45,069 bases of DNA, from NCBI GenBank assembly GCA_964466145.1, contig CAYXMW010000001.1:1-45069 (forward strand), in the 5' to 3' direction. How positions within the stretch are numbered: position 1 is the stretch's first letter; the number at the start of each line of letters is the position of its first letter. Position numbers and translations under genes: made by a program. This DNA comes from an uncultured Pseudomonadales bacterium (GTDB lineage: Bacteria > Patescibacteriota > Microgenomatia > UBA1400 > PJMF01). Below are positions 8,267 to 42,792 of this stretch, one piece after another. Below the pieces are notes generated by a model. The model was not told the DNA's origin. It ran no database searches and saw nothing but the letters and a program-made list of their open reading frames with translations.

Positions 8267-8275
8267 TGCTATACT
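8267..8275 (+). promoter_or_regulatory. Putative extended -10 promoter (TGcTATACT) for mini-ORF A and lemA
   Basis: TGCTATACT lies about 35 nt upstream of the mini-ORF A ATG and is followed by a GAGGA SD at 8301-8305. Confidence 0.4.
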
Positions 8276-8309
8276 CAAATTTGAGTAAAAAAATAAAATT
8301 GAGGACAAT

Positions 8310-8375
8310 ATGTGCGGAGCACCTTTTATACCAGCTAAATTTTATTATAAATCTAAAATTAAGGGTCTAAAATGA
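8310..8375 (+). CDS. Mini-ORF A (21 codons, MCGAPFIPAKFYYKSKIKGLK), translationally coupled to lemA
   Basis: ATG 8310 is preceded by a GAGGA SD with 4-nt spacing. Stop TGA 8373-8375 overlaps the lemA ATG 8372-8374 (ATGA). It shares 22-nt and 23-nt identical blocks with mini-ORF B. Confidence 0.4.
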   Translation: MCGAPFIPAKFYYKSKIKGLK

Positions 8376-8938
8376 AAAAACCTTTCTTAACACTAGGAGC
8401 AGTAGTAGTAGTTTTAGGAATGTGGCTAATGGGTACCTATAATGGACTAGTGGGACTCGGTCAGCGAGTTGATAGTCAATGGGCTCAAGTAGAAACACAA
8501 TACCAACGTCGTTTTGACTTAATACCAAATTTAGTTGAGTCAACCAAAGGTTTCTTAACCCAAGAACAGGAAGTTTTTTCTAATATCGCTGAGGCTAGAC
8601 AAGGATATGCTGGTGCTGGCACTGCCAATGAAAAGGTCGCTGCAACTAACGAAATGGAATCAGCCTTAAGCAGACTATTAGTTATCGTAGAAAATTATCC
8701 TGAATTAAAATCTAACGAAACAGTTCAAGATCTAATGGTTGAGTTAGCTGGCTCTGAAAACCGAGTTAGCGTTGAACGAAAACGCTATAACGACACCGTC
8801 AAAGGATACAACGTTAAAGTTAAAACTTTCCCTACCATGATGGTGGCAAGTATGTTTGGTTATACTGAAAAACCATATTTTGAAGCAGTTGAGGAAGCAG
8901 AAGCTGCTCCAGCAGTAAATCTAGATTTAAATGATTAA
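8372..8938 (+). CDS. lemA: LemA family protein
   Basis: 188 aa with an N-terminal TM and LemA motifs (VDSQWAQVETQYQRRFDLIPNLVE, ENYPELKSNE). Confidence 0.85.
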   Translation: MKKPFLTLGAVVVVLGMWLMGTYNGLVGLGQRVDSQWAQVETQYQRRFDLIPNLVESTKGFLTQEQEVFSNIAEARQGYAGAGTANEKVAATNEMESALSRLLVIVENYPELKSNETVQDLMVELAGSENRVSVERKRYNDTVKGYNVKVKTFPTMMVASMFGYTEKPYFEAVEEAEAAPAVNLDLND

Positions 8939-15616: not shown

Positions 15617-16030
15617 TTAACGAAGATATTTTTTAACTTCTCTTAAAACTTTTTTACTTCCTGCAAAAGTAATTTTCTGCATCGCCTCTTTATACTCAAA
15701 CCAGCCATAGTCAGATACTTCTGACTCTTGAATCACAACCTTCTTATCGCTCACCCAAGCTGGATAATAACTGACCGTTTTATGAAAAATCTGACCATCT
15801 TTTTGCGGATAATATTCTTCTTGAAAGATTATTGAATTGTCAACTTGATACTGCATAATGCCAGTTTCTTCTTCAAACTCGCGCTGAGCGGTTTCTAAAA
15901 ATGATTCCTCTCTCTCAGCATGACCTTTAGGAAAAGCCCAGTGGCCCTCAGTGTGTTGAATTAATAAAAACTCAATAACGTCGCCGTCTTTGTGCATTGG
16001 TACCAAACCAAAAGAAACATCTTTTTTCAT
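15617..16030 (-). CDS. Nudix hydrolase (Ap4A-hydrolase-like)
   Basis: Nudix box GHAEREESFLETAQREFEEETGI, with HWAFPKG upstream of it. Confidence 0.85.
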   Translation of the reverse strand: MKKDVSFGLVPMHKDGDVIEFLLIQHTEGHWAFPKGHAEREESFLETAQREFEEETGIMQYQVDNSIIFQEEYYPQKDGQIFHKTVSYYPAWVSDKKVVIQESEVSDYGWFEYKEAMQKITFAGSKKVLREVKKYLR

Positions 16031-16140
16031 TTTAGACCCTTAATATTCTTTCGAACCCTACTTTTTGTAAAAAAGTAGTTGGTGTAAAATATGCTGTGCA
16101 TAGTATAAAATTTAGCTGGTATAAAAAGTACCATGTGCAT
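16027..16140 (-). CDS. Mini-ORF B (37 codons, MHMVLFIPAKFYTMHSIFYTNYFFTKSRVRKNIKGLK), translationally coupled to the Nudix gene
   Basis: The open frame ends in TGA 16029-16027, overlapping the Nudix ATG 16030-16028 (ATGA). TGcTATAAT lies 9 nt upstream of its ATG. It shares FIPAKFY and IKGLK-stop with mini-ORF A. Confidence 0.4.
   Translation of the reverse strand: MHMVLFIPAKFYTMHSIFYTNYFFTKSRVRKNIKGLK
16058..16078 (-). promoter_or_regulatory. 9-bp hairpin inside mini-ORF B
   Basis: Plus strand CTACTTTTT-GTA-AAAAAGTAG, a perfect 9-bp stem with a 3-nt loop, about 28 nt upstream of the Nudix ATG. Absent from the otherwise homologous locus A. Confidence 0.4.
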
Positions 16141-22718: not shown

Positions 22719-23825
22719 CTAAACCAGCTGCTCCCAAGGAAACTCTGCTTTTCCAAAGTGTCCATAAGCAGCAGTGGGTAGATAAATTGATCGACGCAAA
22801 TCAAAAGCTTTGATAATTCCCTTAACAGAAGTATCTAAAAGATCATCTACAAAAACTTCCATTGCCTTGTCATCGACTTTAGCCGTCCCAAAAGTATCAA
22901 TTGTTTTCATCACTGGATGAGATTGACCAATACAATAAGCCAGTCCTACCTCAACTTGATCAACTAGACCTTTATCAACTAAATTTTTAGCAATGTATCG
23001 AGCAGCATAAGCTCCAGAGCGGTCAACCTTAGTAGGATCTTTACCAGAAAAAGATCCTCCACCAACCCTAGCATAGCCACCATAGCCATCAACAATAATC
23101 TTGCGTCCAGTCATACCAGTATCACTGGCTGGACCACCAATATGCCAAACTCCAGTTCCATTAACTGTTAGCTGATCAATTTTAAGATCGAATTTATATT
23201 CAGCCAAAACTGGTAAAACCACTTCTTTATACAAATCTTTTTTTACCTGTTCTAAAGAAACATCCTCATCATGAGGTACTGCTAAAACAACAGTTTCTAC
23301 TTCAACAGGCTTACCATCCTCATATCTAACCGTCACTTGGGTTTTGCCATCAGGACGTAAGTATTCTAGTATTTTATCTTCACGAACTTGATCAATTTTT
23401 TGAGCCAACCTATGAGACAAAATAATAGGCAGGGGCATTAACTCTGGCGTTTCTGTGTTTGCGTAGCCAAACATCATTCCCTGATCACCAGCACCATCAC
23501 TATCTACGCCCGTAGAAATTTCTGGAGATTGCTGATGAATATATAAAGAAACAGGTGACTGATTACTGAAACCAAACTTATTATTGGTATAACCCAATCT
23601 TTTTATTTGATCTCTAGCTATCTGCTCATAATCTATTTTGGCTGAAGTAGTTACTTCACCTGCTAGAACCACTCTATCTACAGTCACTAAAGTTTCTACC
23701 GCAACTCTGCCAAGCTTGTCTTGATCTAAAACTGCATCTAAAATTGCATCTGAAATTTGATCAGCAACTTTATCAGGATGACCTGCACAAACTGACTCTG
23801 AAGTGAAATGGGTCGTAGAAAACAT
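22719..23825 (-). CDS. metK: S-adenosylmethionine synthetase
   Basis: Near full-length match to MetK signatures (SESVCAGHPDKVADQISDAILD, GAGDQGMMFGYA, GGGSFSGKDPTKVDRSGAY). Confidence 0.95.
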   Translation of the reverse strand: MFSTTHFTSESVCAGHPDKVADQISDAILDAVLDQDKLGRVAVETLVTVDRVVLAGEVTTSAKIDYEQIARDQIKRLGYTNNKFGFSNQSPVSLYIHQQSPEISTGVDSDGAGDQGMMFGYANTETPELMPLPIILSHRLAQKIDQVREDKILEYLRPDGKTQVTVRYEDGKPVEVETVVLAVPHDEDVSLEQVKKDLYKEVVLPVLAEYKFDLKIDQLTVNGTGVWHIGGPASDTGMTGRKIIVDGYGGYARVGGGSFSGKDPTKVDRSGAYAARYIAKNLVDKGLVDQVEVGLAYCIGQSHPVMKTIDTFGTAKVDDKAMEVFVDDLLDTSVKGIIKAFDLRRSIYLPTAAYGHFGKAEFPWEQLV

Positions 23826-23966
23826 AAAACCTCTCTAATAATTAATATTGAGAGGCTTATTAAGACATCTTTCCTCTCATGGTCGGAATTAGCACCTGCC
23901 AATCATAAACTAGCGGTTGCTGGATGAGTCATAAAGCCGAATCTCTACTCATCTCTCTTGATGTAA
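23826..23966 (-). promoter_or_regulatory. SAM-I (S-box) riboswitch with SD-sequestering expression platform
   Basis: Minus strand: ACAUCAAGAGAGAUGAGUAGAGAUUCGGCUUUAUGACUCAUCCAGCAACCGCUAG...UGGCAGGUGCUAAUUCCGACCAUGAGAGGAAAGAUGU (aptamer about 23865-23964). It carries the SAM-I hallmarks AUCAAGAGAG, GCAACC, GGUGCUAAUUCC and AAAGAUG, closed by P1 ACAUC/GAUGU. It is followed by the hairpin CCUCUC-N14-GAGAGG, then UUUUAUG. Confidence 0.85.
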
Positions 23967-23971
23967 AAAAC

Positions 23972-24007: not shown

Positions 24008-25207
24008 TTAATTTGAAGCAGCACTACGAATTTTTAATATAAATTTATCCAGAGTAAACGGTGATAAAACTGCTATTAACTCAAAAGTAAAAATAGATAG
24101 CTCAAAAGCAGATGGGATAAGATTAGTGATAAAAAATGCTCCCAAGCCAATTAAGATGCCATTGAATAAATTGGTTTTAAACATCTCATTTTGAGTTATA
24201 TCTATAATGTTTCGAGCAATGCCTTTTTCCTGTGCCAACTTACCCTGCCTTAAAATATCCTGCAAACCAAACCAAACCACCATCGAAAAAGTAGTTATTG
24301 CTGTCACTGTATTTAAAGTACGGTTGGGTATGCTCACGTCTCCAGAAAAAATTCTTATTTCCCAAGCTAAAGGAAATTTTCTAACTAAAATATAAGCAAG
24401 AATAAATAAAATTATGGTAGAACTACCTAAAAATCCGATAGTTTGTTTGGATTTTTGCTGAGACTCAAGCTGTGGCTTAGACTGAGTAACTATTTTTTCA
24501 TCGCTATCTTCACTCTTCTCAGCTTCTGCTTGAGCTTTTTTCTCAGATACCACTTCAAACTTGCGCTTCATTCTCTTGGCAAGATAAATAAAGACGTGGG
24601 AAAGTAAAATTAAAATCCAAGCTGAAAATACCATCCACAACCCAAAATCTTTAGACCTAGTTACTATTGGATAAGGAATCTTAAACCATAAACCTTGTAA
24701 TGGGTAAACTGGGTAAGGAATAAATTTTAATAAAATACTAGGATCAATTTTATTGGCATAGAAATCTGTTAAGAACAATCTCCCAATCGAGATAAATAAA
24801 GTTATCTGAACCATAAAATCAACTACATAAAACAAGAAAGTCATGTTACCTTGCCTAAAAGTCTTTTTGACCCTAGCTATCTGTTGCTCATCAACTTTAA
24901 GCTCATTAATTTTTTCTTGAAATTTTCTTGTATTATGTGACTGCATTACTCTAATTGTTCGAAAGGGAATCATGAGTAGAGTTTGAGTTACTCCTAACAA
25001 CACTACTGACACCCAAACTTGTTTGGTTAAAGCATAAAAACCAAATAAAATATTCAAATAAAAATTAAGTGTCCAACCTTTAAAAAAGGCATAAACTAAA
25101 AAAATCACAATCGCAGCTACTAAACCACTTAAAACTGGTAATAGTATTCCAGAGGAAGAGACCTTAGTATCTCTAACTAGAGACGGAGAAACTTTATTAT
25201 CAACCAT
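24008..25207 (-). CDS. Polytopic membrane protein, possible divergent YidC/Oxa1-like insertase
   Basis: 399 aa. A TM followed by the amphipathic basic segment LLMIPFRTIRVMQSHNTRKFQEKINELK resembles the YidC TM1-C1 region. An acidic linker and extra C-terminal TMs follow. Weak call. Confidence 0.35.
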   Translation of the reverse strand: MVDNKVSPSLVRDTKVSSSGILLPVLSGLVAAIVIFLVYAFFKGWTLNFYLNILFGFYALTKQVWVSVVLLGVTQTLLMIPFRTIRVMQSHNTRKFQEKINELKVDEQQIARVKKTFRQGNMTFLFYVVDFMVQITLFISIGRLFLTDFYANKIDPSILLKFIPYPVYPLQGLWFKIPYPIVTRSKDFGLWMVFSAWILILLSHVFIYLAKRMKRKFEVVSEKKAQAEAEKSEDSDEKIVTQSKPQLESQQKSKQTIGFLGSSTIILFILAYILVRKFPLAWEIRIFSGDVSIPNRTLNTVTAITTFSMVVWFGLQDILRQGKLAQEKGIARNIIDITQNEMFKTNLFNGILIGLGAFFITNLIPSAFELSIFTFELIAVLSPFTLDKFILKIRSAASN

Positions 25208-31211: not shown

Positions 31212-32315
31212 TCAAATCCAGCCACCAATAATTACGACTCCCATGATTAGCATAATTATGCCAGCAACTAAGTGAAGTGTTTTTAATCTTTTTTGACGAA
31301 TTTCCTCTGCCTTAGCTGGATCAAATCCTTTGTAAACTGCCACTGATATTAAAATCATCGGCAACACAAAAATTAAGTTATATATTATTAAATAAATCAC
31401 TGCTTTAGTTTGTGAAACTGCATTTGCCAACATTCCTAAAATCACGATATAAGGACCACTCGTACAAGGTAATAAAAACAAACTAATAATAAAGCCAATT
31501 CCAAATGCTCCAACTGGATTTGTGACTGAGTGCATCAATTTTTTAAGATTTGGACGCCAACTCATTGGTACTTCCATCAATACACCCTTGCCATACCACA
31601 ACCAGTCTTTAAGATTTAACAATCCTAAAACTATTGCCATCCAACCAACTACTTTAAAAAATGCATTAGACAAACCACCTAGCTCCAAAGCCTTATATAA
31701 ACCTAAACCCATTAAAAAATAAGAAATAAAAATTGAGCTAGCAAAAGCCAAACCAGATTTGAGAGCTTTCTTACCATTTCCAGCCGCTAAAATAGTACTC
31801 ATTAAAATTATTAAAACTGCAAAAGCACAAGGATTAACAGCGTCAACAATACTAGCACCAATCACTGCTGTTAAAGTCAGATCTAAAGTAATAGGAGCAT
31901 CAAAACTATCTCGATCTAATTCCTCTTGCTGATCAGCATCATCAATAACATCTGTTAGTAAAAACTTATCTGCTTCAGTAACAAAATTATCAATTATAGA
32001 TTTATCTCCTAAAATAACTTGGTCACCAATTATCACTAAAGGCACACCCCGCTTATTTTCTGGTACACCCAACTTTGTTAAGAGAGAACTAAATAAGAGG
32101 GCATTATCTCGATTAGAATAAATTTCTTTTTTTTCAACTGGATATTTAGCATACAAATCTTGAGTTTCAAAATATTCTTCAACAATAGAACAGTGAGGAC
32201 AACCCTGACCATAAAATAAATAAATTTTTGAGTTCTCTTGTGCTTGAGCTACTTGAACTGCAATTACAAATATAAAAATAAATAATAAACTTAATTTAAC
32301 TAATCTTTTAATCAT
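31212..32315 (-). CDS. Fusion of secreted thioredoxin/glutaredoxin-like domain (CPHC) with a CcdA/DsbD-type membrane domain
   Basis: Signal peptide, YLFYGQGCPHCSIVEEYF, then TM core with NPCAFAVL and LLPCTSGPY signature Cys contexts. Confidence 0.75.
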   Translation of the reverse strand: MIKRLVKLSLLFIFIFVIAVQVAQAQENSKIYLFYGQGCPHCSIVEEYFETQDLYAKYPVEKKEIYSNRDNALLFSSLLTKLGVPENKRGVPLVIIGDQVILGDKSIIDNFVTEADKFLLTDVIDDADQQEELDRDSFDAPITLDLTLTAVIGASIVDAVNPCAFAVLIILMSTILAAGNGKKALKSGLAFASSIFISYFLMGLGLYKALELGGLSNAFFKVVGWMAIVLGLLNLKDWLWYGKGVLMEVPMSWRPNLKKLMHSVTNPVGAFGIGFIISLFLLPCTSGPYIVILGMLANAVSQTKAVIYLIIYNLIFVLPMILISVAVYKGFDPAKAEEIRQKRLKTLHLVAGIIMLIMGVVIIGGWI

Positions 32316-33433
32316 TGTTTTTCCTGTTTACTAAAAATATAAGCTGCCATTATTGTAGCTAATGGCGCAGCTAAAACCAAGCCAATACTACCAACTAACA
32401 TCCGCACAATCTCTTCGGCAATTAGTTCATACTCTAAAATATCTAAAAAAGTTTTTTGACTATCAAAAAAAAGTAATAATAATGGTAAAGATGAACCTGA
32501 ATAAACTAATACTAAAGTATTAACCATTGAAGAAACGTGATCTTGTCCAACCCTCATCCCATCTTTAAATAACTCTAAAAAATTTATCTCAGGCTTTGCT
32601 TTTTTAAGTTGCTTGACTACAGATGCCTGACCGATAGTCACATCATCTAGAATTCCTAAAGTTCCGATAATAATACCTGCTAAAAGCAAACCTCTGATAT
32701 CGATCGCACCCTGTTTCTCTACTTGTAAAAATCCTGCTTCTTCAGAGGCAAAACCAGTCAAATAAGTAGCGTCTGCAAAATAAGTAGCCAACAAACCAGT
32801 GATAATCAAACCAATAAAAGTTGCTGCTATTCCAACGTGGGTTTTTTTATTAAACCCATGAGAAATATAAAAAGTGGTCGGAATAATAATTACCGAACCT
32901 AAAATTGCAGCTAAAATAGGGTTAATACCTTGGATAATTAATGGAATAATAAGTTTAAAAATAACCACAAATGAAGTTAACAACCCCAATAAAGATAGGA
33001 CACCCCAAATTCTCCCCACTAGTAACACCACTATTATAAATAGGAGCACTAGTATTAGTAAGCCACCACGCTTAACCATGCCATCAAGAGAATAAATCGT
33101 TTCTCCATTCATATCTTGCTGTGTAAAAATTTTAACTTTATCTCCTATTTGGTACTGTTGATACTTAGCACCAACTACTTCTAAGCCTGCGGCTGAGTTT
33201 TCAACTTTAATTAACTCATCCGTTTTCTCTCCTTTAGTAACTCTAATCTCTAACTCTTGAAACTCAACTAATTCATCTAAAAAACTTTTCTTACCACTAT
33301 CTATAATTTTAGTGATCACACCTTCCTTAGCCTCAATAGCAACTTCTTGAGCAAATACATCTGGAGAAATATTTATAAAAAAAACTATAAAAATAATTAA
33401 TGATAAAAAAATACGAATCAAAAGTCGTTGCAT
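32312..33433 (-). CDS. YibE/F-like polytopic membrane protein
   Basis: Signal/TM, about 110-aa extracytoplasmic domain, then multiple TMs (IIPTTFYISHGFNKKTH...). Its stop overlaps the start of the downstream fusion gene (ATGA). Confidence 0.55.
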   Translation of the reverse strand: MQRLLIRIFLSLIIFIVFFINISPDVFAQEVAIEAKEGVITKIIDSGKKSFLDELVEFQELEIRVTKGEKTDELIKVENSAAGLEVVGAKYQQYQIGDKVKIFTQQDMNGETIYSLDGMVKRGGLLILVLLFIIVVLLVGRIWGVLSLLGLLTSFVVIFKLIIPLIIQGINPILAAILGSVIIIPTTFYISHGFNKKTHVGIAATFIGLIITGLLATYFADATYLTGFASEEAGFLQVEKQGAIDIRGLLLAGIIIGTLGILDDVTIGQASVVKQLKKAKPEINFLELFKDGMRVGQDHVSSMVNTLVLVYSGSSLPLLLLFFDSQKTFLDILEYELIAEEIVRMLVGSIGLVLAAPLATIMAAYIFSKQEKQ

Positions 33434-35075: not shown

Positions 35076-36452
35076 ATGTCTCTCAGGGGGAAAAGAATTG
35101 GCACAGTCTTATCGATGACGTCTTTAGTGAGTAAAAATGCTCAACCGGGCACCTTTGCAGCTGGAGAAAAATTTATTGATTGGTTAGCTAAATCTAAACA
35201 AAATGCGTGGCAGGTTTTACCACTTCATCAAACTCAACTAGAAAAAGGATCTGCTATTAAACATATCCCCTCACCCTATAAAGGCTATGGCATTGGATTA
35301 AACCCCCGCTTTTTAAGCAATGATGCACCTCAACCATCACCTGAACAACTAGCTGAATTTATTAAAAATAATAATTATTGGCTAGAAGATTATGTTTTAT
35401 TTTGCGCTCTACGAGATCAATTTGGAACCGACAGCTGGAATCAGTGGCCAGCTGATATTAGAAAAAGAAATAAAAATAGCATTAAAAAATGGCAAAAAAA
35501 ACTAGCTTCTCAAATCAATGCCCACATCAAAACTCAAGCACAACTACATCTTTCTTATAAGCAGCTTCAAAAAAAAGCTGCTAGCAAAGAGGTGATGCTG
35601 ATTGGAGATCTACCTCTTTATTTAAGCCTAAATAGTTCTCTGGTGTGGCAATTTCAAAATCTATTTGATATTAGCAAAGATGGAAAGATGCAACGAACAA
35701 GTGGCGTACCAATAGGTCCAAAATCCCATTTTGGAAGACAAATCTGGGGTCATCCTCTATATAAGTGGCAAGAGAGAAATTTAATCCCAAAAATAGAAAA
35801 ATTATTTGAAATTAGACTCAAGTACCTAGCTCAGCTTTTTGATTGGGTGAGAATCGATCATGCTAAAGGCCTCTTTACTTACGCTGCCATGGATTTAACT
35901 ACAAGAAATGCTGATCAGTATTTGCCAGGTCCTGGAAAAAAATTCTTAGAAAAAATAATTAATTTTGCCCATCAACAAAACTTAAACATTTATGCAGAAG
36001 ATACTGGGGATAAACTTAAAGACCTGAGGGAGTGTTTACAGTCTCACCAAATACCAGGCATTAAAATTTTCATATATGCTTACAATGAAAAGAAAAAGAG
36101 ATTCGTAGATCAATATCTAGAGGTTGATCAATATCAACCCAATAATTTTGCCTATACCACTACTCATGATACAGAAACCTTAATGGGTTACTTGCAACAA
36201 CTTTCAGCAACTGAAATCAATACTTTAATTAAAAAACTAAATATCAATAAGACTGATAATTTGAAACTTCTAGCTAAGCAAATCAAAGATAAAATAATTA
36301 ATTCCCCAGCAAAAATAGCACTCATTACTCTTCAAGATTGGCTGTATACTACCGAACGCATCAATATCCCTGGCACTGAAAAAGAAATCGATGATCCAAA
36401 CTGGAGATATCAAATGATCACGCCAATAGAAGACCTACCGACAAACCTATGA
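35076..36452 (+). CDS. malQ: 4-alpha-glucanotransferase (amylomaltase, GH77)
   Basis: GH77 catalytic contexts VRIDHAKG, YAEDTGD and TTTHDT. N-terminal RIGTVLSMTSL. Confidence 0.85.
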   Translation: MSLRGKRIGTVLSMTSLVSKNAQPGTFAAGEKFIDWLAKSKQNAWQVLPLHQTQLEKGSAIKHIPSPYKGYGIGLNPRFLSNDAPQPSPEQLAEFIKNNNYWLEDYVLFCALRDQFGTDSWNQWPADIRKRNKNSIKKWQKKLASQINAHIKTQAQLHLSYKQLQKKAASKEVMLIGDLPLYLSLNSSLVWQFQNLFDISKDGKMQRTSGVPIGPKSHFGRQIWGHPLYKWQERNLIPKIEKLFEIRLKYLAQLFDWVRIDHAKGLFTYAAMDLTTRNADQYLPGPGKKFLEKIINFAHQQNLNIYAEDTGDKLKDLRECLQSHQIPGIKIFIYAYNEKKKRFVDQYLEVDQYQPNNFAYTTTHDTETLMGYLQQLSATEINTLIKKLNINKTDNLKLLAKQIKDKIINSPAKIALITLQDWLYTTERINIPGTEKEIDDPNWRYQMITPIEDLPTNL

Positions 36453-36526
36453 AAAAATGCAGATCATCTTGCATACCAGCTAATTTTTCTGCACTCTGTT
36501 TGAAAAAGTCAGGGTCCGTAATATGA
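36449..36526 (+). CDS. Mini-ORF C (25 codons, MKKCRSSCIPANFSALCLKKSGSVI) bridging malQ and glgA
   Basis: ATG 36449 overlaps the malQ stop TGA 36450-36452. Its own TGA 36524-36526 overlaps the glgA ATG 36523-36525. It contains ATACCAGCTAATTTT (36473-36487), the core shared with mini-ORFs A and B. Confidence 0.35.
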   Translation: MKKCRSSCIPANFSALCLKKSGSVI

Positions 36527-38049
36527 AAATATTAATGGTCACCGCTGAAGCCGCTCCCTTTGTGAGGATAGGTGGACTCTCACAAGTTATCTACTTTTTA
36601 TCTAAAGAACTAATTAAACAAGGTCATGATGTGCGTGTTTTTATGCCAAAGTATGGGGTAATTAAAAAAACATTTGAAACAAAGCAAGTGGCAACAGATT
36701 TAGAAATACCATTCGGTAAACTTAATAAGAATAAAGTTTTGTGCAATGTGAAAGTTAACCATTCTCAGAAAAATTCTCCATCAACTTACTTCTTAGAAAA
36801 CAGGGAGTATTACGAGTTGCGAGCTAATGTTTTTGCTTATAAAGATGATCATCTTCGTTTTTTACTCCTATCAAGAGGTTGTTTAGAGTGGTTATCACTT
36901 GAACAACAAAAAAAAGATGGTTGGAAGCCAGATATTATCCATTGTCATGACTGGCATACTGGGTACCTGATTGATGAAATTCGCCGCAACCCTCGCTACT
37001 CAAAAAAATTCTCTAAGACACCAACTCTATACACTGTTCATAACTTTAAATACCAAGGTAATACAATCTTTAAATATAAATCTCCTCAAAAGCAAGACAA
37101 TGGCGTTAGACTATTAAATACTACTGATGAAAAGAAGCTTCTTAACCAAAACCCCCTATTACGAGGCATGCTCTATGCAGATTGGGTAAATACAGTTTCT
37201 AAATCTCATGCTCTAGAAGCAATGACCGCCGAGTATGGCGAAGGCCTCGAAAAAATTATTACCAAAATGAAGGGAAAGTTCTCAGGAATCTTAAATGGAT
37301 TAGACAATAAAGAGTTTAATCCTAGCACTGATCCGTTTTTAGAAAAAAACTACTCAGTTAATTCAATTGAAAAAAGAGCCTCTAACAAAACAGAGCTCCA
37401 AAAAGATTTTAATTTGCCTGAAGATGAAAATGCTTTTTTACTTGGATTTGTGGGTCGTCTTTCTAAACAAAAAGGCCTAGACATCTTAATCCCTGTCGTC
37501 AAAAGATTTTTGGAAGAATTTTCAGCTCAATTTATTTTTCTAGGCAGTGGAAATGGCGAATATAAAAATCAGCTAAATAAACTCCAAAAAAAATTCCCCA
37601 ATAATGTTAGCGTTCATCTTTATCCTGATTTTAAACTGCCTCGGAAAATATTTTCTGGAGCTGATGCAGTTCTAATACCTAGTATTTTTGAGCCAGGTGG
37701 AATTGTAGCTCTGGAAGCAATGAGGTATGGGGCAATCCCAATTGTTAGAAAAACTGGTGGCTTAGCTGACAGTGTCATTGACTTTGATCCGCAAACAAAA
37801 GCCGGAAATGGTTTTATTTTCGAACAATTTTCTCAGTGGTCATTGTTTGCTACTTTAGTCAGAGCCATGACCATCAACCAACAACCATCATTATGGAAAA
37901 AACTTGTTAGAAACGCCATGAAATCTGACTTTTCTTGGAGAGTAACTGCTGGTGAATATCAAAGTTTATATCAGCGAATCATCAAACAAAGAAAAAGATT
38001 TATCAGCATTAATCCACACTTAGCCTATGATCCTCTTCACAAAGACTAA
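36523..38049 (+). CDS. glgA: Glycogen/starch synthase (GT5)
   Basis: MKILMVTAEAAPFVRIGGLSQV (a KxGGL-type motif that reads RIGGL here), NGLDNKEFNP, and SIFEPGGIVALEAMRYG. Confidence 0.9.
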   Translation: MKILMVTAEAAPFVRIGGLSQVIYFLSKELIKQGHDVRVFMPKYGVIKKTFETKQVATDLEIPFGKLNKNKVLCNVKVNHSQKNSPSTYFLENREYYELRANVFAYKDDHLRFLLLSRGCLEWLSLEQQKKDGWKPDIIHCHDWHTGYLIDEIRRNPRYSKKFSKTPTLYTVHNFKYQGNTIFKYKSPQKQDNGVRLLNTTDEKKLLNQNPLLRGMLYADWVNTVSKSHALEAMTAEYGEGLEKIITKMKGKFSGILNGLDNKEFNPSTDPFLEKNYSVNSIEKRASNKTELQKDFNLPEDENAFLLGFVGRLSKQKGLDILIPVVKRFLEEFSAQFIFLGSGNGEYKNQLNKLQKKFPNNVSVHLYPDFKLPRKIFSGADAVLIPSIFEPGGIVALEAMRYGAIPIVRKTGGLADSVIDFDPQTKAGNGFIFEQFSQWSLFATLVRAMTINQQPSLWKKLVRNAMKSDFSWRVTAGEYQSLYQRIIKQRKRFISINPHLAYDPLHKD

Positions 38050-39803: not shown

Positions 39804-40292
39804 CTAGTTCAATCTTCGATGAGGTCTCACAGATTCATCTTTAAGCTCTAGTCTCTGGTAAATTTGTTTCATTTGACCTCTTCTACTCCAATGATCATTT
39901 AACCCTAGCCTATCAATCATAAAACCAGCCGCTAAAATAGCTAATACAAAAGATACTACAATTAACTTAAAATTCTTTTGATAAGAAAAGTCATATTTTC
40001 TAAGAAGATTTATTCCCAAAACAACTCCAACAACTGCCAATACTGGTATCCACCAAGGAAAATTCTTTAGCATCATCTGTAATTTCCAAGAAACCATTGG
40101 TCCACGCCCTCTTAAAGTAAAAACAGTCAAATTAACTAAAAACATTGCTCCCATACCAAGAGTAATAATTCCACTTAAAAGAGATATTGAACCCACCACG
40201 AAATACCACTTAGGCTTCATCTTAATCTGCCCAGTTTTAACCTGGGACATGATTTTTTCTGCTAGTTTTAATTGACTTTTTTTATTTGACAT
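39804..40292 (-). CDS. Four-TM membrane protein, candidate anti-sigma partner
   Basis: 162 aa. Overlaps the 3' end of the ECF sigma gene by 25 nt. No recognisable zinc anti-sigma motif; the role is inferred from position only. Confidence 0.35.
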   Translation of the reverse strand: MSNKKSQLKLAEKIMSQVKTGQIKMKPKWYFVVGSISLLSGIITLGMGAMFLVNLTVFTLRGRGPMVSWKLQMMLKNFPWWIPVLAVVGVVLGINLLRKYDFSYQKNFKLIVVSFVLAILAAGFMIDRLGLNDHWSRRGQMKQIYQRLELKDESVRPHRRLN

Positions 40293-40819
40293 TTTTTTTT
40301 CATTATTAATTTAGCTCTATTTATTCTAGTTCCCACAGTTCCAGTAGGAATTCGTAAAATATCACTAATTTCACTATATGATTTATCTTCTAAAAAATAC
40401 AAACTCAAAGGCTCTCTGTATAAGAGTGGTATTTCTTCAAGACAATCATTCACCATTTTTTCAATTTCTTTTTTAGTATATTCTTCCTCAATATTGATGC
40501 CACTATCAAAATTGACATCTTCAAAAAGAGGTTTCTCTTTTTTATATTTATTAATTAAATTAATCGCTTCATTATGAACAATCCGATAAATCCAGCTTGA
40601 AAATTGACGCTTACTATCAAAGCTGTTGAGCTTAACATACGCCTTAATAAATGCATCTTGAACCACATCTGCAGCTCTATCGTCATCATTTACTAAGTAT
40701 TTCGCATATCTCATCAATTTTTTTTGATAGCGCTTCACTACTTCAGCATAAACTTCTTTATCTTTGTTTCTAGTAATTTCAATAACTTCCTCATCGGAAA
40801 GTTTTGATAAATCAAGCAT
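40268..40819 (-). CDS. ECF-type RNA polymerase sigma-70 family factor
   Basis: Region 2 (AADVVQDAFIKAYVKL...WIYRIVHNEAIN) and region 4 HTH (SYSEISDILRIPTGTVGTRINRAK). Confidence 0.85.
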   Translation of the reverse strand: MLDLSKLSDEEVIEITRNKDKEVYAEVVKRYQKKLMRYAKYLVNDDDRAADVVQDAFIKAYVKLNSFDSKRQFSSWIYRIVHNEAINLINKYKKEKPLFEDVNFDSGINIEEEYTKKEIEKMVNDCLEEIPLLYREPLSLYFLEDKSYSEISDILRIPTGTVGTRINRAKLIMKKKCQIKKVN

Positions 40820-40897: not shown

Positions 40898-41275
40898 TTA
40901 TTTACTATATCGACCTCTACCGTTACCTTTCTGACCTGGGCCAGAACCATTGCGCAAACCTAAACCGAGCTCTTCTCTAATTTGCTTGGCTTCATCTAAT
41001 TTCCCTGCTTGAGCTAATTGATGAGCTTCTGCAAAACGAGCAAAATTATCTTGGTTGACAACTTGCGTGACTCTGCCTTTATCCTGCATCTGCTCTCTCC
41101 AAGCATTGTAGTCATTACTATCAAATGCCTGAGTCATAGCTTGATGTCGCTCTGCGGAATAATCTGGACCTTGAGCGCCAGGGTCACCCCTGTAAGCTTC
41201 TACTTGACCAGAAAGAGTAGAAAGTCCTGCTAAAGATAGTGCTAAAGCACCTAAAACTAATCCTGTCTTTTTCAT
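40898..41275 (-). CDS. Small secreted protein of unknown function
   Basis: Signal peptide (MKKTGLVLGALALSLAGLSTLSGQVEA), helical core, Gly/Arg-rich tail. Strong SD (AAGGAGG). Confidence 0.5.
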   Translation of the reverse strand: MKKTGLVLGALALSLAGLSTLSGQVEAYRGDPGAQGPDYSAERHQAMTQAFDSNDYNAWREQMQDKGRVTQVVNQDNFARFAEAHQLAQAGKLDEAKQIREELGLGLRNGSGPGQKGNGRGRYSK

Positions 41276-42137: not shown

Positions 42138-42168
42138 GGTGATTACATAAATTTAAGAAAATTTGATT

Positions 42169-42792
42169 ATGAGAAATTTTAACGATAACAATAGATCTAG
42201 AAGACCTCGTGGCGGAAGAGATTTTGACCGAAGAGGAAGAAGAGATAGTGGTCGGCGCCGAATGCATGACGCCATTTGCGCGGACTGTGGTGACAACTGC
42301 AAAGTTCCTTTTATACCTAGCTCTGGAAAACCTGTTTACTGTAGCAACTGTTTTGAAAAAAGAGGAAATGGAAATCGTAACTCTAGACAAGACTCCAGAA
42401 GACCTAGTTTTTCCAACAGAGATAATAGATCATCTAGAGATAGTCGCCCAGCTAGAAATAGTCGTCCTCAAAAAGATTACGATCAACAGTTTGAGACCAT
42501 TGATGCCAAACTCAACAAAATTCTAGGAATATTAATCCCAAAAAAAGAAGCGGCCGAAATTAAACCAGCTGCCGTTATCGAAGAAGCAATGGTTAAAGAA
42601 CCAATCGTTGAAGTTGAGACTCAAGAAGAGCCAGTTGTAGAAAAAGCAGCTGTTGAAGAAAAGGTTGTCCCAGCCGAAACAGAAGCAGAAATAGCTGCTA
42701 AAGAAATTATTGAAACAGAAGTAGAAGCAGCTGTTGAAGAAAAAACTGTCGCAGCCGAAACAGAAGCAGCTGTTGAAGAAAAAACTGTTTAA
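42169..42792 (+). CDS. CxxC-x17-CxxC zinc-ribbon protein with Arg-rich flanks and acidic repeat tail
   Basis: CADC-(17 residues)-CSNC counted directly. R/G/S/N/D-rich segments lie on both sides. The C-terminal tail consists of AAVEEKTVAAETE-type repeats. ATG 42169 is preferred over TTG 42163. Confidence 0.7.
   Translation: MRNFNDNNRSRRPRGGRDFDRRGRRDSGRRRMHDAICADCGDNCKVPFIPSSGKPVYCSNCFEKRGNGNRNSRQDSRRPSFSNRDNRSSRDSRPARNSRPQKDYDQQFETIDAKLNKILGILIPKKEAAEIKPAAVIEEAMVKEPIVEVETQEEPVVEKAAVEEKVVPAETEAEIAAKEIIETEVEAAVEEKTVAAETEAAVEEKTV
42646..42789 (+). repeat. In-frame 39-nt coding repeats (GCAGCTGTTGAAGAAAAxxxTGTCxCAGCCGAAACAGAA)
   Basis: Copies at 42646-42684 and 42727-42765, plus a partial copy at 42766-42789, encoding A-A-V-E-E-K-(V/T)-V-(P/A)-A-E-T-E. 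Confidence 0.6.

Follow-up and report, generated by a model that had tools for sequence, protein, structure and literature searches.

A Small Hairpin Repeat, Probably Mobile, Inserted at Start Codons in a Paceibacteria-Like Genome

Introduction

Miniature inverted-repeat transposable elements, or MITEs, and small palindromic repeats of bacteria are located in transcribed regions beside genes and can create small open reading frames (ORFs) or alter gene expression (PMC10969869, PMC3049150). The Rickettsia palindromic elements, about 150 bp long, are translated in frame, so that their product is part of the host protein (PMC10969869). Here, we consider a short repeat in a stretch of 45,069 nucleotides (nt) from an uncultured bacterium (contig CAYXMW010000001.1 of assembly GCA_964466145.1, positions 1–45,069; the whole stretch is hereinafter called the window), where three mini-ORFs, A, B and C, precede genes that Pfam assigns to LemA, a NUDIX hydrolase and glycogen synthase (glgA), respectively. 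The initial annotation of the window regarded these mini-ORFs as leader peptides. It was found that they are not ancestral leader peptides but copies of a repeat family. In our opinion, with a probability of roughly 0.8, all three are copies of a small hairpin repeat that is mobile but non-autonomous, was inserted at start codons and is tolerated there by termination and restart of translation at an ATGA overlap.

The repeat resembles bacterial MITEs and small palindromic repeats, such as Correia/NEMIS, ERIC and RUP/BOX/SPRITE, which are likewise short, hairpin-forming, multi-copy and strain-polymorphic (PMC10969869, PMC3049150). In a literature search, no report of MITEs in the Candidate Phyla Radiation (CPR) or of small repeats in Paceibacteria was found. 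As to the translational side, coupling of termination and reinitiation at ATGA or TGATG overlaps, as well as the leaderless upstream ORF (uORF) attenuators of mycobacteria, have reportedly been described in the works of Huber et al. 2019, Shell et al. 2015 and Canestrari et al. 2020.

Results

Mini-ORF A occupies positions 8310-8375 of the forward strand (+) and encodes MCGAPFIPAKFYYKSKIKGLK; B, of 37 amino acids (aa), lies at 16140-16027 of the reverse strand (−), and C, of 25 aa, at 36449-36526 (+). Rereading of the letters confirmed these positions and the sequence of A, the junctions in which the start codon of lemA (8372), the Nudix gene (16030, −) or glgA (36523) has its TG in common with the TGA stop of the mini-ORF, and the two blocks identical between A and B (8324-8345 = 16126-16105 and 8358-8380 = 16044-16022). 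A chance origin, considered improbable from the beginning, was excluded for the shared 15-nt core ATACCAGCTAAWTTT, with 3 exact matches versus 0.44 expected (at most 2 mismatches, 100 shuffles). The core followed by a downstream AGGGTC was found 3 times in the window versus 0.00 expected; AGGGTC by itself is not enriched there (9 seen versus 10.6 expected).

The nature of these sequences became clear from orthologous sites. LemA and GlgA homologues at graded identity were fetched with their contigs (designated by L numbers), and synteny was conserved throughout. One of these contigs, L040, is 98.6–99% identical to the window at the nucleotide level over 3.3 kb, and its lemA site is precisely empty: it reads …AAAATTGAGGACAAT ATG AAAAAA…, with GAGGACAAT before the ATG and identical flanks. 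At the same place, the window contains 62 extra nt (8313-8374) with an ATG on both sides. The lemA site is also empty in L027, where it reads AAGGACAAATATG, and in L028, L029, L038 and L039 (LemA 89–77% identical). The Nudix site is empty in L028, L029 and L038 (…ATGAAAAAA), and the glgA site in L031 and L032, where the malQ stop overlaps the glgA start in the ancestral state, …CTT ATGA AAAT…. The glgA site of L030 is filled by a clean insertion of the C-type defined below, CCT ATG/CACAGC…CCGTAAT/ATG AAAAT (slashes mark its ends). Conservation at orthologous loci, which a leader peptide would need, was therefore not observed at six lemA, three Nudix and two glgA sites, and no copy was detected in 61.7 kb of syntenic sequence of L027-L029. 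Because orthologous sites are empty, even in a strain about 99% identical, the repeat is a recent insertion, polymorphic within the species.

Two independent contigs from the Joint Genome Institute (JGI), L003 and L004, end at window position 8277, 33 nt upstream of the lemA insertion. Such ends are consistent with coexistence of filled and empty alleles, which would break the assembly here; L040, from a related sample series, represents the empty allele.

The basic unit of the repeat is an imperfect palindrome of 56 nt (A-type) or 66 nt (C-type). All copies can be aligned as an AT(G/A) triplet, a 5′ tail of 11–12 nt with the consensus CACA..GCAYC, one long imperfect hairpin with the consensus UUUUAUACC-AG-CUAAAUUUUA / loop / UAAAAUUAAG-GGUCUAAAA, and a second AT(G/A) triplet. 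A Shine–Dalgarno (SD)-like AAGGG, replaced by CAGGG in the C-type, is located in the 3′ arm of the hairpin, 6–8 nt before the regenerated ATG, and this start codon adjoins the foot of the stem. Terminal inverted repeats were not found at the extreme ends, where the palindrome reaches the right end and the left tail of 11–12 nt (CACATAGCACC) is unpaired.

Across ten copies, 95.3% of the cells of the hairpin are paired, slid registers come nowhere near this value, and 5 of the 17 pairs have changed on both sides (e.g., UUUU/AAAA, UUGC/GUAA and UUUC/GAAA). The conserved unit is thus a hairpin with compensatory changes, in agreement with the caveat of the initial annotation that RNA or DNA, rather than the peptide, could be under constraint. 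Folding with ViennaRNA gave this hairpin as the minimum-free-energy structure in 5 of the 8 sequences folded. An alternative fold of copy C (ACUCUG/CAGGGU) was rejected as not conserved in L015c, a copy described below, and a call of strand, or of RNA versus DNA, from wobble pairs was dropped since G·U and A·C cells are seen in either sense.

A covariance model (R1) was built from the aligned copies. In the window, it matched the three loci and no further copy, even with filters off. At the first locus, the native lemA start codon (8310..8312, +), recognized by comparison with the empty site of L040, is now the start of mini-ORF A, and upstream of it are lemA's own SD, GAGGA (8302-8306, +), and the lemA promoter TGCTATACT (about 8268-8276, +). 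Copy A (8313..8374, +; 79.6 bits) is a 62-nt insertion, i.e., an A-type unit with 6 additional nt in the loop; its last three nt are the regenerated lemA ATG (8372-8374). Its imperfect hairpin (8324..8372, +) consists of an outer stem UUUUA.ACC / GGU.UAAAA, an AG bulge and an inner stem CU.AAUUUUA / UAAAAUU.AG, encloses the SD-like AAGGG (8361-8365) and adjoins the AUG. It is the minimum-free-energy fold, at −8.3 kcal/mol, a value no better than that of shuffled sequences. The ATGA junction (8372..8375, +) joins the lemA start with the stop of mini-ORF A.

At the second locus, the native Nudix start codon (16138..16140, −), identified from the empty sites of L028, L029 and L038, has become the start of mini-ORF B; an extended −10 element, TGCTATAAT, 9 nt upstream of it gives a leaderless-type context. 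Copy B (16028..16137, −) is a 110-nt insertion that ends in the regenerated Nudix ATG (16030-16028) and is followed by the ATGA junction of the Nudix start and the mini-ORF B stop (16027..16030, −). Previously described as a single unit, it is in fact an A-type copy with outer arms at 16126-16118 and 16038-16030 and a second, diverged copy, B2 (16044..16103, −), nested in its loop. The whole scores 55.5 bits over 16025-16140 (R1, filters off). The match of B2 (44.5 bits, E 3.5e-6) is independent, since B2 was absent from the training set of R1. For B2, its own hairpin, UUUUACACC-AA-CUACUUUUU / AAAAAGUAG-GGUUCGAAA, was predicted by folding, and relative to the core it is phased differently from the enclosing copy, B1.

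At the third locus, 8 nt that are extra in comparison with the L030 copy, ATGAAAAA (36449..36456, +), hold the ancestral ATGA overlap of the malQ stop and the glgA start. Copy C of the C-type (36457..36525, +; R1 66.8 bits) includes the left ATG (36457-36459) and a 66-nt insertion (36460-36525) with a hairpin at 36469-36521, the SD-like CAGGG at 36510-36514 and, at its end, the regenerated glgA ATG (36523-36525), which forms the ATGA junction with the stop of mini-ORF C (36523..36526, +). The ORF at 36449-36526 exists as described, but its start at 36449 is not the element's own, as it lies in the extra 8 nt. The left flank of the element is ATG 36457, out of frame with mini-ORF C, and the frame of this ATG hits TAA inside the core.

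Species-representative genomes and JGI metagenomes were scanned with the pattern of the core followed by AGGGTC. The search for more copies, proposed at the outset, was successful, and they were found only in a Paceibacterota metagenome-assembled genome (MAG) of GTDB, SI034_bin135, and in similar metagenome contigs. The repeat has so far been met in Paceibacteria-like (CPR) contigs and as one fragment in a non-CPR-looking contig. The window itself has 36% G+C, and the named relatives closest to it are MAGs of Paceibacterota and "Pacebacteria". A-type copies lie directly on the starts of genes for a peptidyl-tRNA hydrolase-like protein (pth, L005), a UDP-glucose dehydrogenase-like protein (ugd-like, L009), a YjeF-like protein (L015) and a glycosyltransferase (L021), all four identified from their N-termini, as well as on the start of one unknown gene (L017). 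Comparison of the window with the other loci by blastn brought to light another copy of the C-type, located upstream of recF (L015 3350-3421, −; called L015c). One further genome contributed two copies, both with the core and the hairpin: that of L013 is in the intergenic spacer between histidine-kinase and response-regulator genes, and that of L023 directly adjoins a rubrerythrin-like ORF at its start codon and is oriented opposite to it; neither has a downstream ATG.

In total, at least 11 independent insertions, about a dozen, were recognized in several genomes, i.e., the repeat is dispersed, multi-copy and polymorphic in its presence or absence, and one insertion, B2, occurred inside another copy. 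The genes downstream (lemA, Nudix, glgA, pth-like, ugd-like, YjeF-like, recF and glycosyltransferase) are functionally unrelated.

Pattern matches in Spirochaetia, Chlamydiae, Nostoc and several metagenome contigs were discarded as chance, being inside coding sequence with only the pattern in common, and phage, plasmid and viral collections gave chance matches only. With the gathering thresholds of Rfam, the only match of the window is a SAM riboswitch located elsewhere, and the repeat has none; E-value searches of the loci against Rfam returned chance-level eukaryotic and viral RNA families, none near the gathering score.

The fragment in the non-CPR-looking contig (L016 1-330 = L033 5960-6300) is a 5′-truncated element-like sequence with a 49-nt insertion in its loop; genes for sialidase, DHDPS and peptidase C69 are its neighbours, and a tyrosine integrase fragment is near. 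It has 24 + 15 nt identical to copy A and lies 37 nt after a frameshifted, truncated IS200-like tnpA pseudogene. An origin of the repeat as a relic of tnpA coding sequence was rejected: true TnpA homologues read LKGKTAIKIF where a Pfam alignment covered "IPAKFYY", and DNA homology to an intact copy (L036) stops 37 nt before the element-like stretch.

The triplets flanking the repeat covary: 8 independent insertions (9 sequenced copies) have ATG/ATG, L013 and L023 have ATA/ATA, and L015c has ATA/ATG. The insertion site is an AT(G/A) triplet followed by A-rich sequence, and almost always it is the start codon of a gene (ATGAAA…). The presence of the same 3-nt triplet on both sides of the filled sites, and of one triplet in the empty sites, may correspond either to a target-site duplication or to a specific target plus an element-borne end. 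A duplication longer than 3 nt was rejected, since in no copy do the 6 nt that follow the left ATG agree with host codons 2-3, and an apparent repeat of 7–8 nt in C turned out to be the window-specific 8-nt addition. Every copy follows AT(G/A), which fits insertion of the IS200/IS605 type, 3′ of a short target and in one orientation, but is not diagnostic of it.

The left triplet is the native start of the host gene: at lemA, the gene's own SD and promoter stand upstream of it, as in relatives, and a −10 box 6–9 nt upstream was found in 6 of 8 cases, whereas in the window the corresponding figures are 4.8% for all ATGs and 27% for annotated starts. A related observation concerns the window as a whole, in which 12 of the 44 ORF starts have a TATAAT-like hexamer 5–10 nt upstream of the ATG, compared with 4.8% of all ATGs; the ORFs at 24008-25207 (−), 25275 (+), 32312-33433 (−) and 35076 (+) are examples. 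This suggests that leaderless mRNAs are common in the window organism. At all nine independent ATG sites, the regenerated ATG is followed by A at position +4, versus 47% of gene starts.

Each mini-ORF is a composite of the host's old start codon, the stop-free frame of the element and a TGA made of the regenerated aTG and the next A of the host. A-type inserts of 56, 62 and 110 nt are all 2 mod 3, stop-free and end on ATGA, and two independent length changes (+6 and +54 nt) are both in phase. In the C-type, 66 nt is 0 mod 3, and the open frame is the one in which the upstream gene arrives at the ATGA overlap. Accordingly, in L030 (457-1899) MalQ runs through the element, gains 22 aa (CTASCVPADFSALRLKKSGSVI) and stops on the new ATGA (480 aa versus 458). 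The 8-nt ATGAAAAA in the window restores the malQ stop and puts a new ATG, the start of mini-ORF C, in frame with the element. The stop/start ATGA overlap with an SD upstream of the restart codon is present in 9 of the 9 independent ATG-flanked sites. To judge by these sequence data, the architecture, a translatable frame that ends on an ATGA restart, seems to have been kept by evolution.

The public GlgA sequence (P0121, 504 aa) starts at an internal Met (MVTAEAAPF…) instead of the MKILMV start common to relatives; a protein of 508 aa is expected from the gene at 36523-38049.

The peptide itself does not show such constraint, nor do key codons, since the changes are mostly non-synonymous, phases differ, a start has been lost and in-frame stops occur. 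When the conservation of frame and junction was checked, as had been proposed, all seven A-type copies had an in-frame ATG and no stop, but L013 and L023 contain stops in the IPA frame. L015c has ATA in place of the left ATG and no start codon in frame, and A-type and C-type copies differ in phase relative to the left ATG. The check for synonymous substitutions went against the peptide, with about 5 amino-acid-changing codons versus about 3 silent ones between C and the L030 copy (by eye).

Several other features of the window deserve mention. The SAM (S-adenosylmethionine) riboswitch (RF00162) at 23862-23967 (−), with 46 bits just above the gathering score of 44.4, is directly upstream of a SAM synthetase gene (22719-23825, −), an ordinary layout, though of note for a CPR genome. 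At 42579-42769 (+), four imperfect direct repeats, each about 50 nt long and with 60–88% identity to the reference copy, look like a low-complexity coding repeat in the ORF 42163-42792, which begins with an N-terminal treble-clef zinc finger. A gene for an extracytoplasmic function (ECF)-type sigma factor (40268-40819, −) overlaps a downstream ORF (39804-40292), which has no Pfam hit and possibly encodes an anti-sigma factor; an ORF with a Metal_resist domain (40898-41275) is upstream of the sigma factor.

Discussion

The arrangement of the repeat gives an idea of how a gene could survive its insertion. Ribosomes would start at the old AUG or come from the upstream operon gene, and their movement through the element would melt the hairpin and expose the SD. 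After termination at UGA, they could restart on the overlapping AUG with the help of the exposed SD; the host gene would stay expressed, and the peptide itself would have no function. We give about even odds to this chain of events, and similarly to the proposition that the layout lets the element persist at start codons through termination–reinitiation.

It is somewhat less probable, and is put forward only tentatively, that the element is specialised for start codons, i.e., that it inserts at ATG(A), regenerates the ATG and brings a frame, an SD and an overlapping stop, and the host gene survives. Its 2 mod 3 subfamily would then serve insertion at a gene's own ATG, the 0 mod 3 subfamily insertion at the ATGA overlaps of operons, and an HUH enzyme with a retargetable 3-nt guide might mobilise it. 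Such specialisation would especially suit the compact genomes of CPR bacteria, in which leaderless genes are many and neutral intergenic DNA is almost lacking.

More speculative still, and in our estimate rather unlikely, is the idea that the hairpin, with its 5′ tail, is mainly a recognition structure for mobilisation, possibly as single-stranded DNA and by an HUH/Y1 enzyme of the IS200/IS605 type or of the REP-associated tyrosine transposase (RAYT) type. A weak hint of guide/target pairing comes from the tail, which contains CAT in ATG-flanked C-type copies and TAT in the ATA-flanked copies of L013 and L023, but the tails of the A-type (CAC or TAC) are at odds with simple pairing.

A number of observations weigh against a mobile repeat tolerated by restart of translation. 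A search of about 0.4 Mb of loci sequence, which is a small part of each genome, revealed neither a transposase nor an autonomous parent, and in the same CPR loci tblastn with an IS200-type TnpA gave no match; among the 38 of 45 window ORFs scanned against Pfam, no transposase was present. The ends lack classical terminal inverted repeats and thus do not fix the class of transposition. The hairpin is weak (−5 to −8 kcal/mol, z-scores near 0, no better than shuffles), and the G·U and A·C cells leave neither RNA and DNA nor the two strands told apart. Maintenance of the frame rests on few events, with a rough estimate of p ~0.03 for two in-phase stop-free indels. The universal A at +4 could reflect a preference for ATGAAA targets and not selection for a TGA stop; such a preference is possible because the flanks downstream of every copy are A-rich. 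Finally, the L030 copy (1828-1899) is about 93% identical to L015 3350-3421 and about 86% identical to window 36455-36526 (by eye), with flanks at about 79%; this suggests for glgA either shared ancestry or two hits on a hot spot, or else faster decay of the window copy.

The explanation that survives best among the others is a cis-regulatory RNA hairpin that masks the SD, as a thermosensor or as the operator of an RNA-binding repressor, and was spread for common control, the ORF being incidental. The covarying hairpin does enclose the SD and adjoin the AUG, its sequence is nearly identical across genomes of different sites, and even unpaired positions, such as the AG bulge and a U·C mismatch, are conserved; moreover, this explanation is compatible with a mobile origin. 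However, its stability does not exceed that of shuffled sequences, the copy of L013 has no gene downstream, that of L023 faces away from the adjacent start codon, and one copy is nested in another. Presence or absence at the strain level suggests that no essential regulon is involved, and Rfam contains no match. We consider such control improbable as the main explanation.

The initial annotation saw in A, B and C a conserved uORF family of host-encoded regulatory leader peptides, in which translation, or stalling on IPAxF, gates the gene. Its descriptive part, a translatable frame that ends on an ATGA restart, holds: all A-type copies have the in-frame ATG, the open frame and the junction, and the hairpin contains an SD that a translating ribosome would open. 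The conserved family gating its genes does not, as it is largely refuted by empty orthologous sites at about 99% identity and is further contradicted by the unrelated functions of the downstream genes, the mostly non-synonymous differences between C and L030 (by eye), the copy without a start codon (L015c), the IPA-frame stops and missing downstream ATG in L013 and L023, and B2, which reads the core in another phase. Nothing in the analysis supports stalling on IPAxF. Regulatory leader peptides are, consequently, very improbable.

A portable promoter or transcription-factor site, with TTTATA, 17 nt and TAAAAT or a palindromic operator placed before genes, deserves equally little credence. The A-type has both hexamers and the 17-nt spacer (by eye), and the palindrome occurs in divergent promoter regions in L023 and L013. 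Against this, A (+6 nt) and B (+54 nt) do not preserve the spacing, the C-type lacks the hexamers, and upstream of the left ATG the host already has a −10 box or SD of its own; nor does such a site explain why the frame is kept and the distance to the ATG fixed. A sigma-70 or SigB-type promoter in the core was also rejected, as the spacings differ between A, B and C (by eye).

That the mini-ORFs make genuine small basic peptides of 19–37 aa upstream of various genes, another early proposal, is hardly credible: the frames are open, with a start codon, and have Lys-rich tails (SKIKGLK), but the copies are nearly identical in nucleotides with differences that alter the peptide, length and phase vary, the frame is fused to MalQ in L030, and L015c has no start codon.

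Conclusions

The small mobile hairpin repeat accounts for the identical "leader peptides" before unrelated genes as selfish DNA, not regulation, and this is a warning for the discovery of uORFs and small proteins in metagenomic genomes. Annotation is also affected, as MalQ is extended by 22 aa through the element in L030 and the public GlgA is begun at an internal Met. The insertion polymorphism at the strain level is a marker of recent activity of mobile elements in Paceibacteria. If restart of translation does bypass the insertion, this would be a novel means by which a transposable element renders its insertion harmless, as well as a natural portable cassette of a uORF, an SD-masking hairpin and an ATGA restart, with which both termination–reinitiation and leaderless initiation in uncultivated CPR bacteria could be tested by means of reporters. 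If, in addition, the element is specialised for start codons, it would represent a translational counterpart of introns and inteins, which spare host genes.

Against the background of known systems, the repeat differs from MITEs in that it occupies the start codon itself, regenerates the ATG, contains an SD and forms an ATGA overlap of stop and start, and from classical MITEs in the absence of terminal inverted repeats and of a known parent insertion sequence. In the text of a 2024 review of MITEs (PMC10969869), a term search found 'start codon', 'ribosome binding' and 'IS200' nowhere. Like the Rickettsia palindromic elements (PMC10969869), it is a palindrome with an open frame that would survive in genes by leaving translation unbroken, the peptide being a by-product of a DNA element. 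Unlike them, it is only 56–66 nt long and stands before the protein, set apart from it by a −1 overlap of stop and restart; no sequence relationship between the two was seen or compared.

With the IS200/IS605 palindrome-associated transposable elements and the repetitive extragenic palindromic (REP)/RAYT systems (PMC3201880, PMC5934647, PMC3333891), the repeat shares an imperfect hairpin whose foot is preceded on the 5′ side by an unpaired tail, the lack of terminal inverted repeats, a strict short target beside the insertion and a fixed orientation to the target strand. The match of tail and flank recalls the guide/target pairing of IS608 (PMC3201880, PMC5934647). In contrast to IS200/IS605 elements, it has one hairpin and not distinct left and right ends, no Y1 transposase was found near any CPR copy in the loci sequence, and the tnpA pseudogene of L016/L033 shares no DNA with the repeat. 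As no mobilising enzyme was found in the sequence covered, an assignment to IS200/IS605 derivatives is not made.

The stop/start overlap and the SD upstream of the restart codon are features of termination–reinitiation coupling, and the uORF may start at a leaderless 5′ AUG, as in the mycobacterial attenuators; both of those are vertically inherited and gene-specific, whereas here one cassette is inserted before unrelated genes. By analogy, the repeat looks like a MITE/REP-type element in the way it works, its translational tolerance resembles that of the Rickettsia palindromic elements, and its read-out resembles ATGA coupling.

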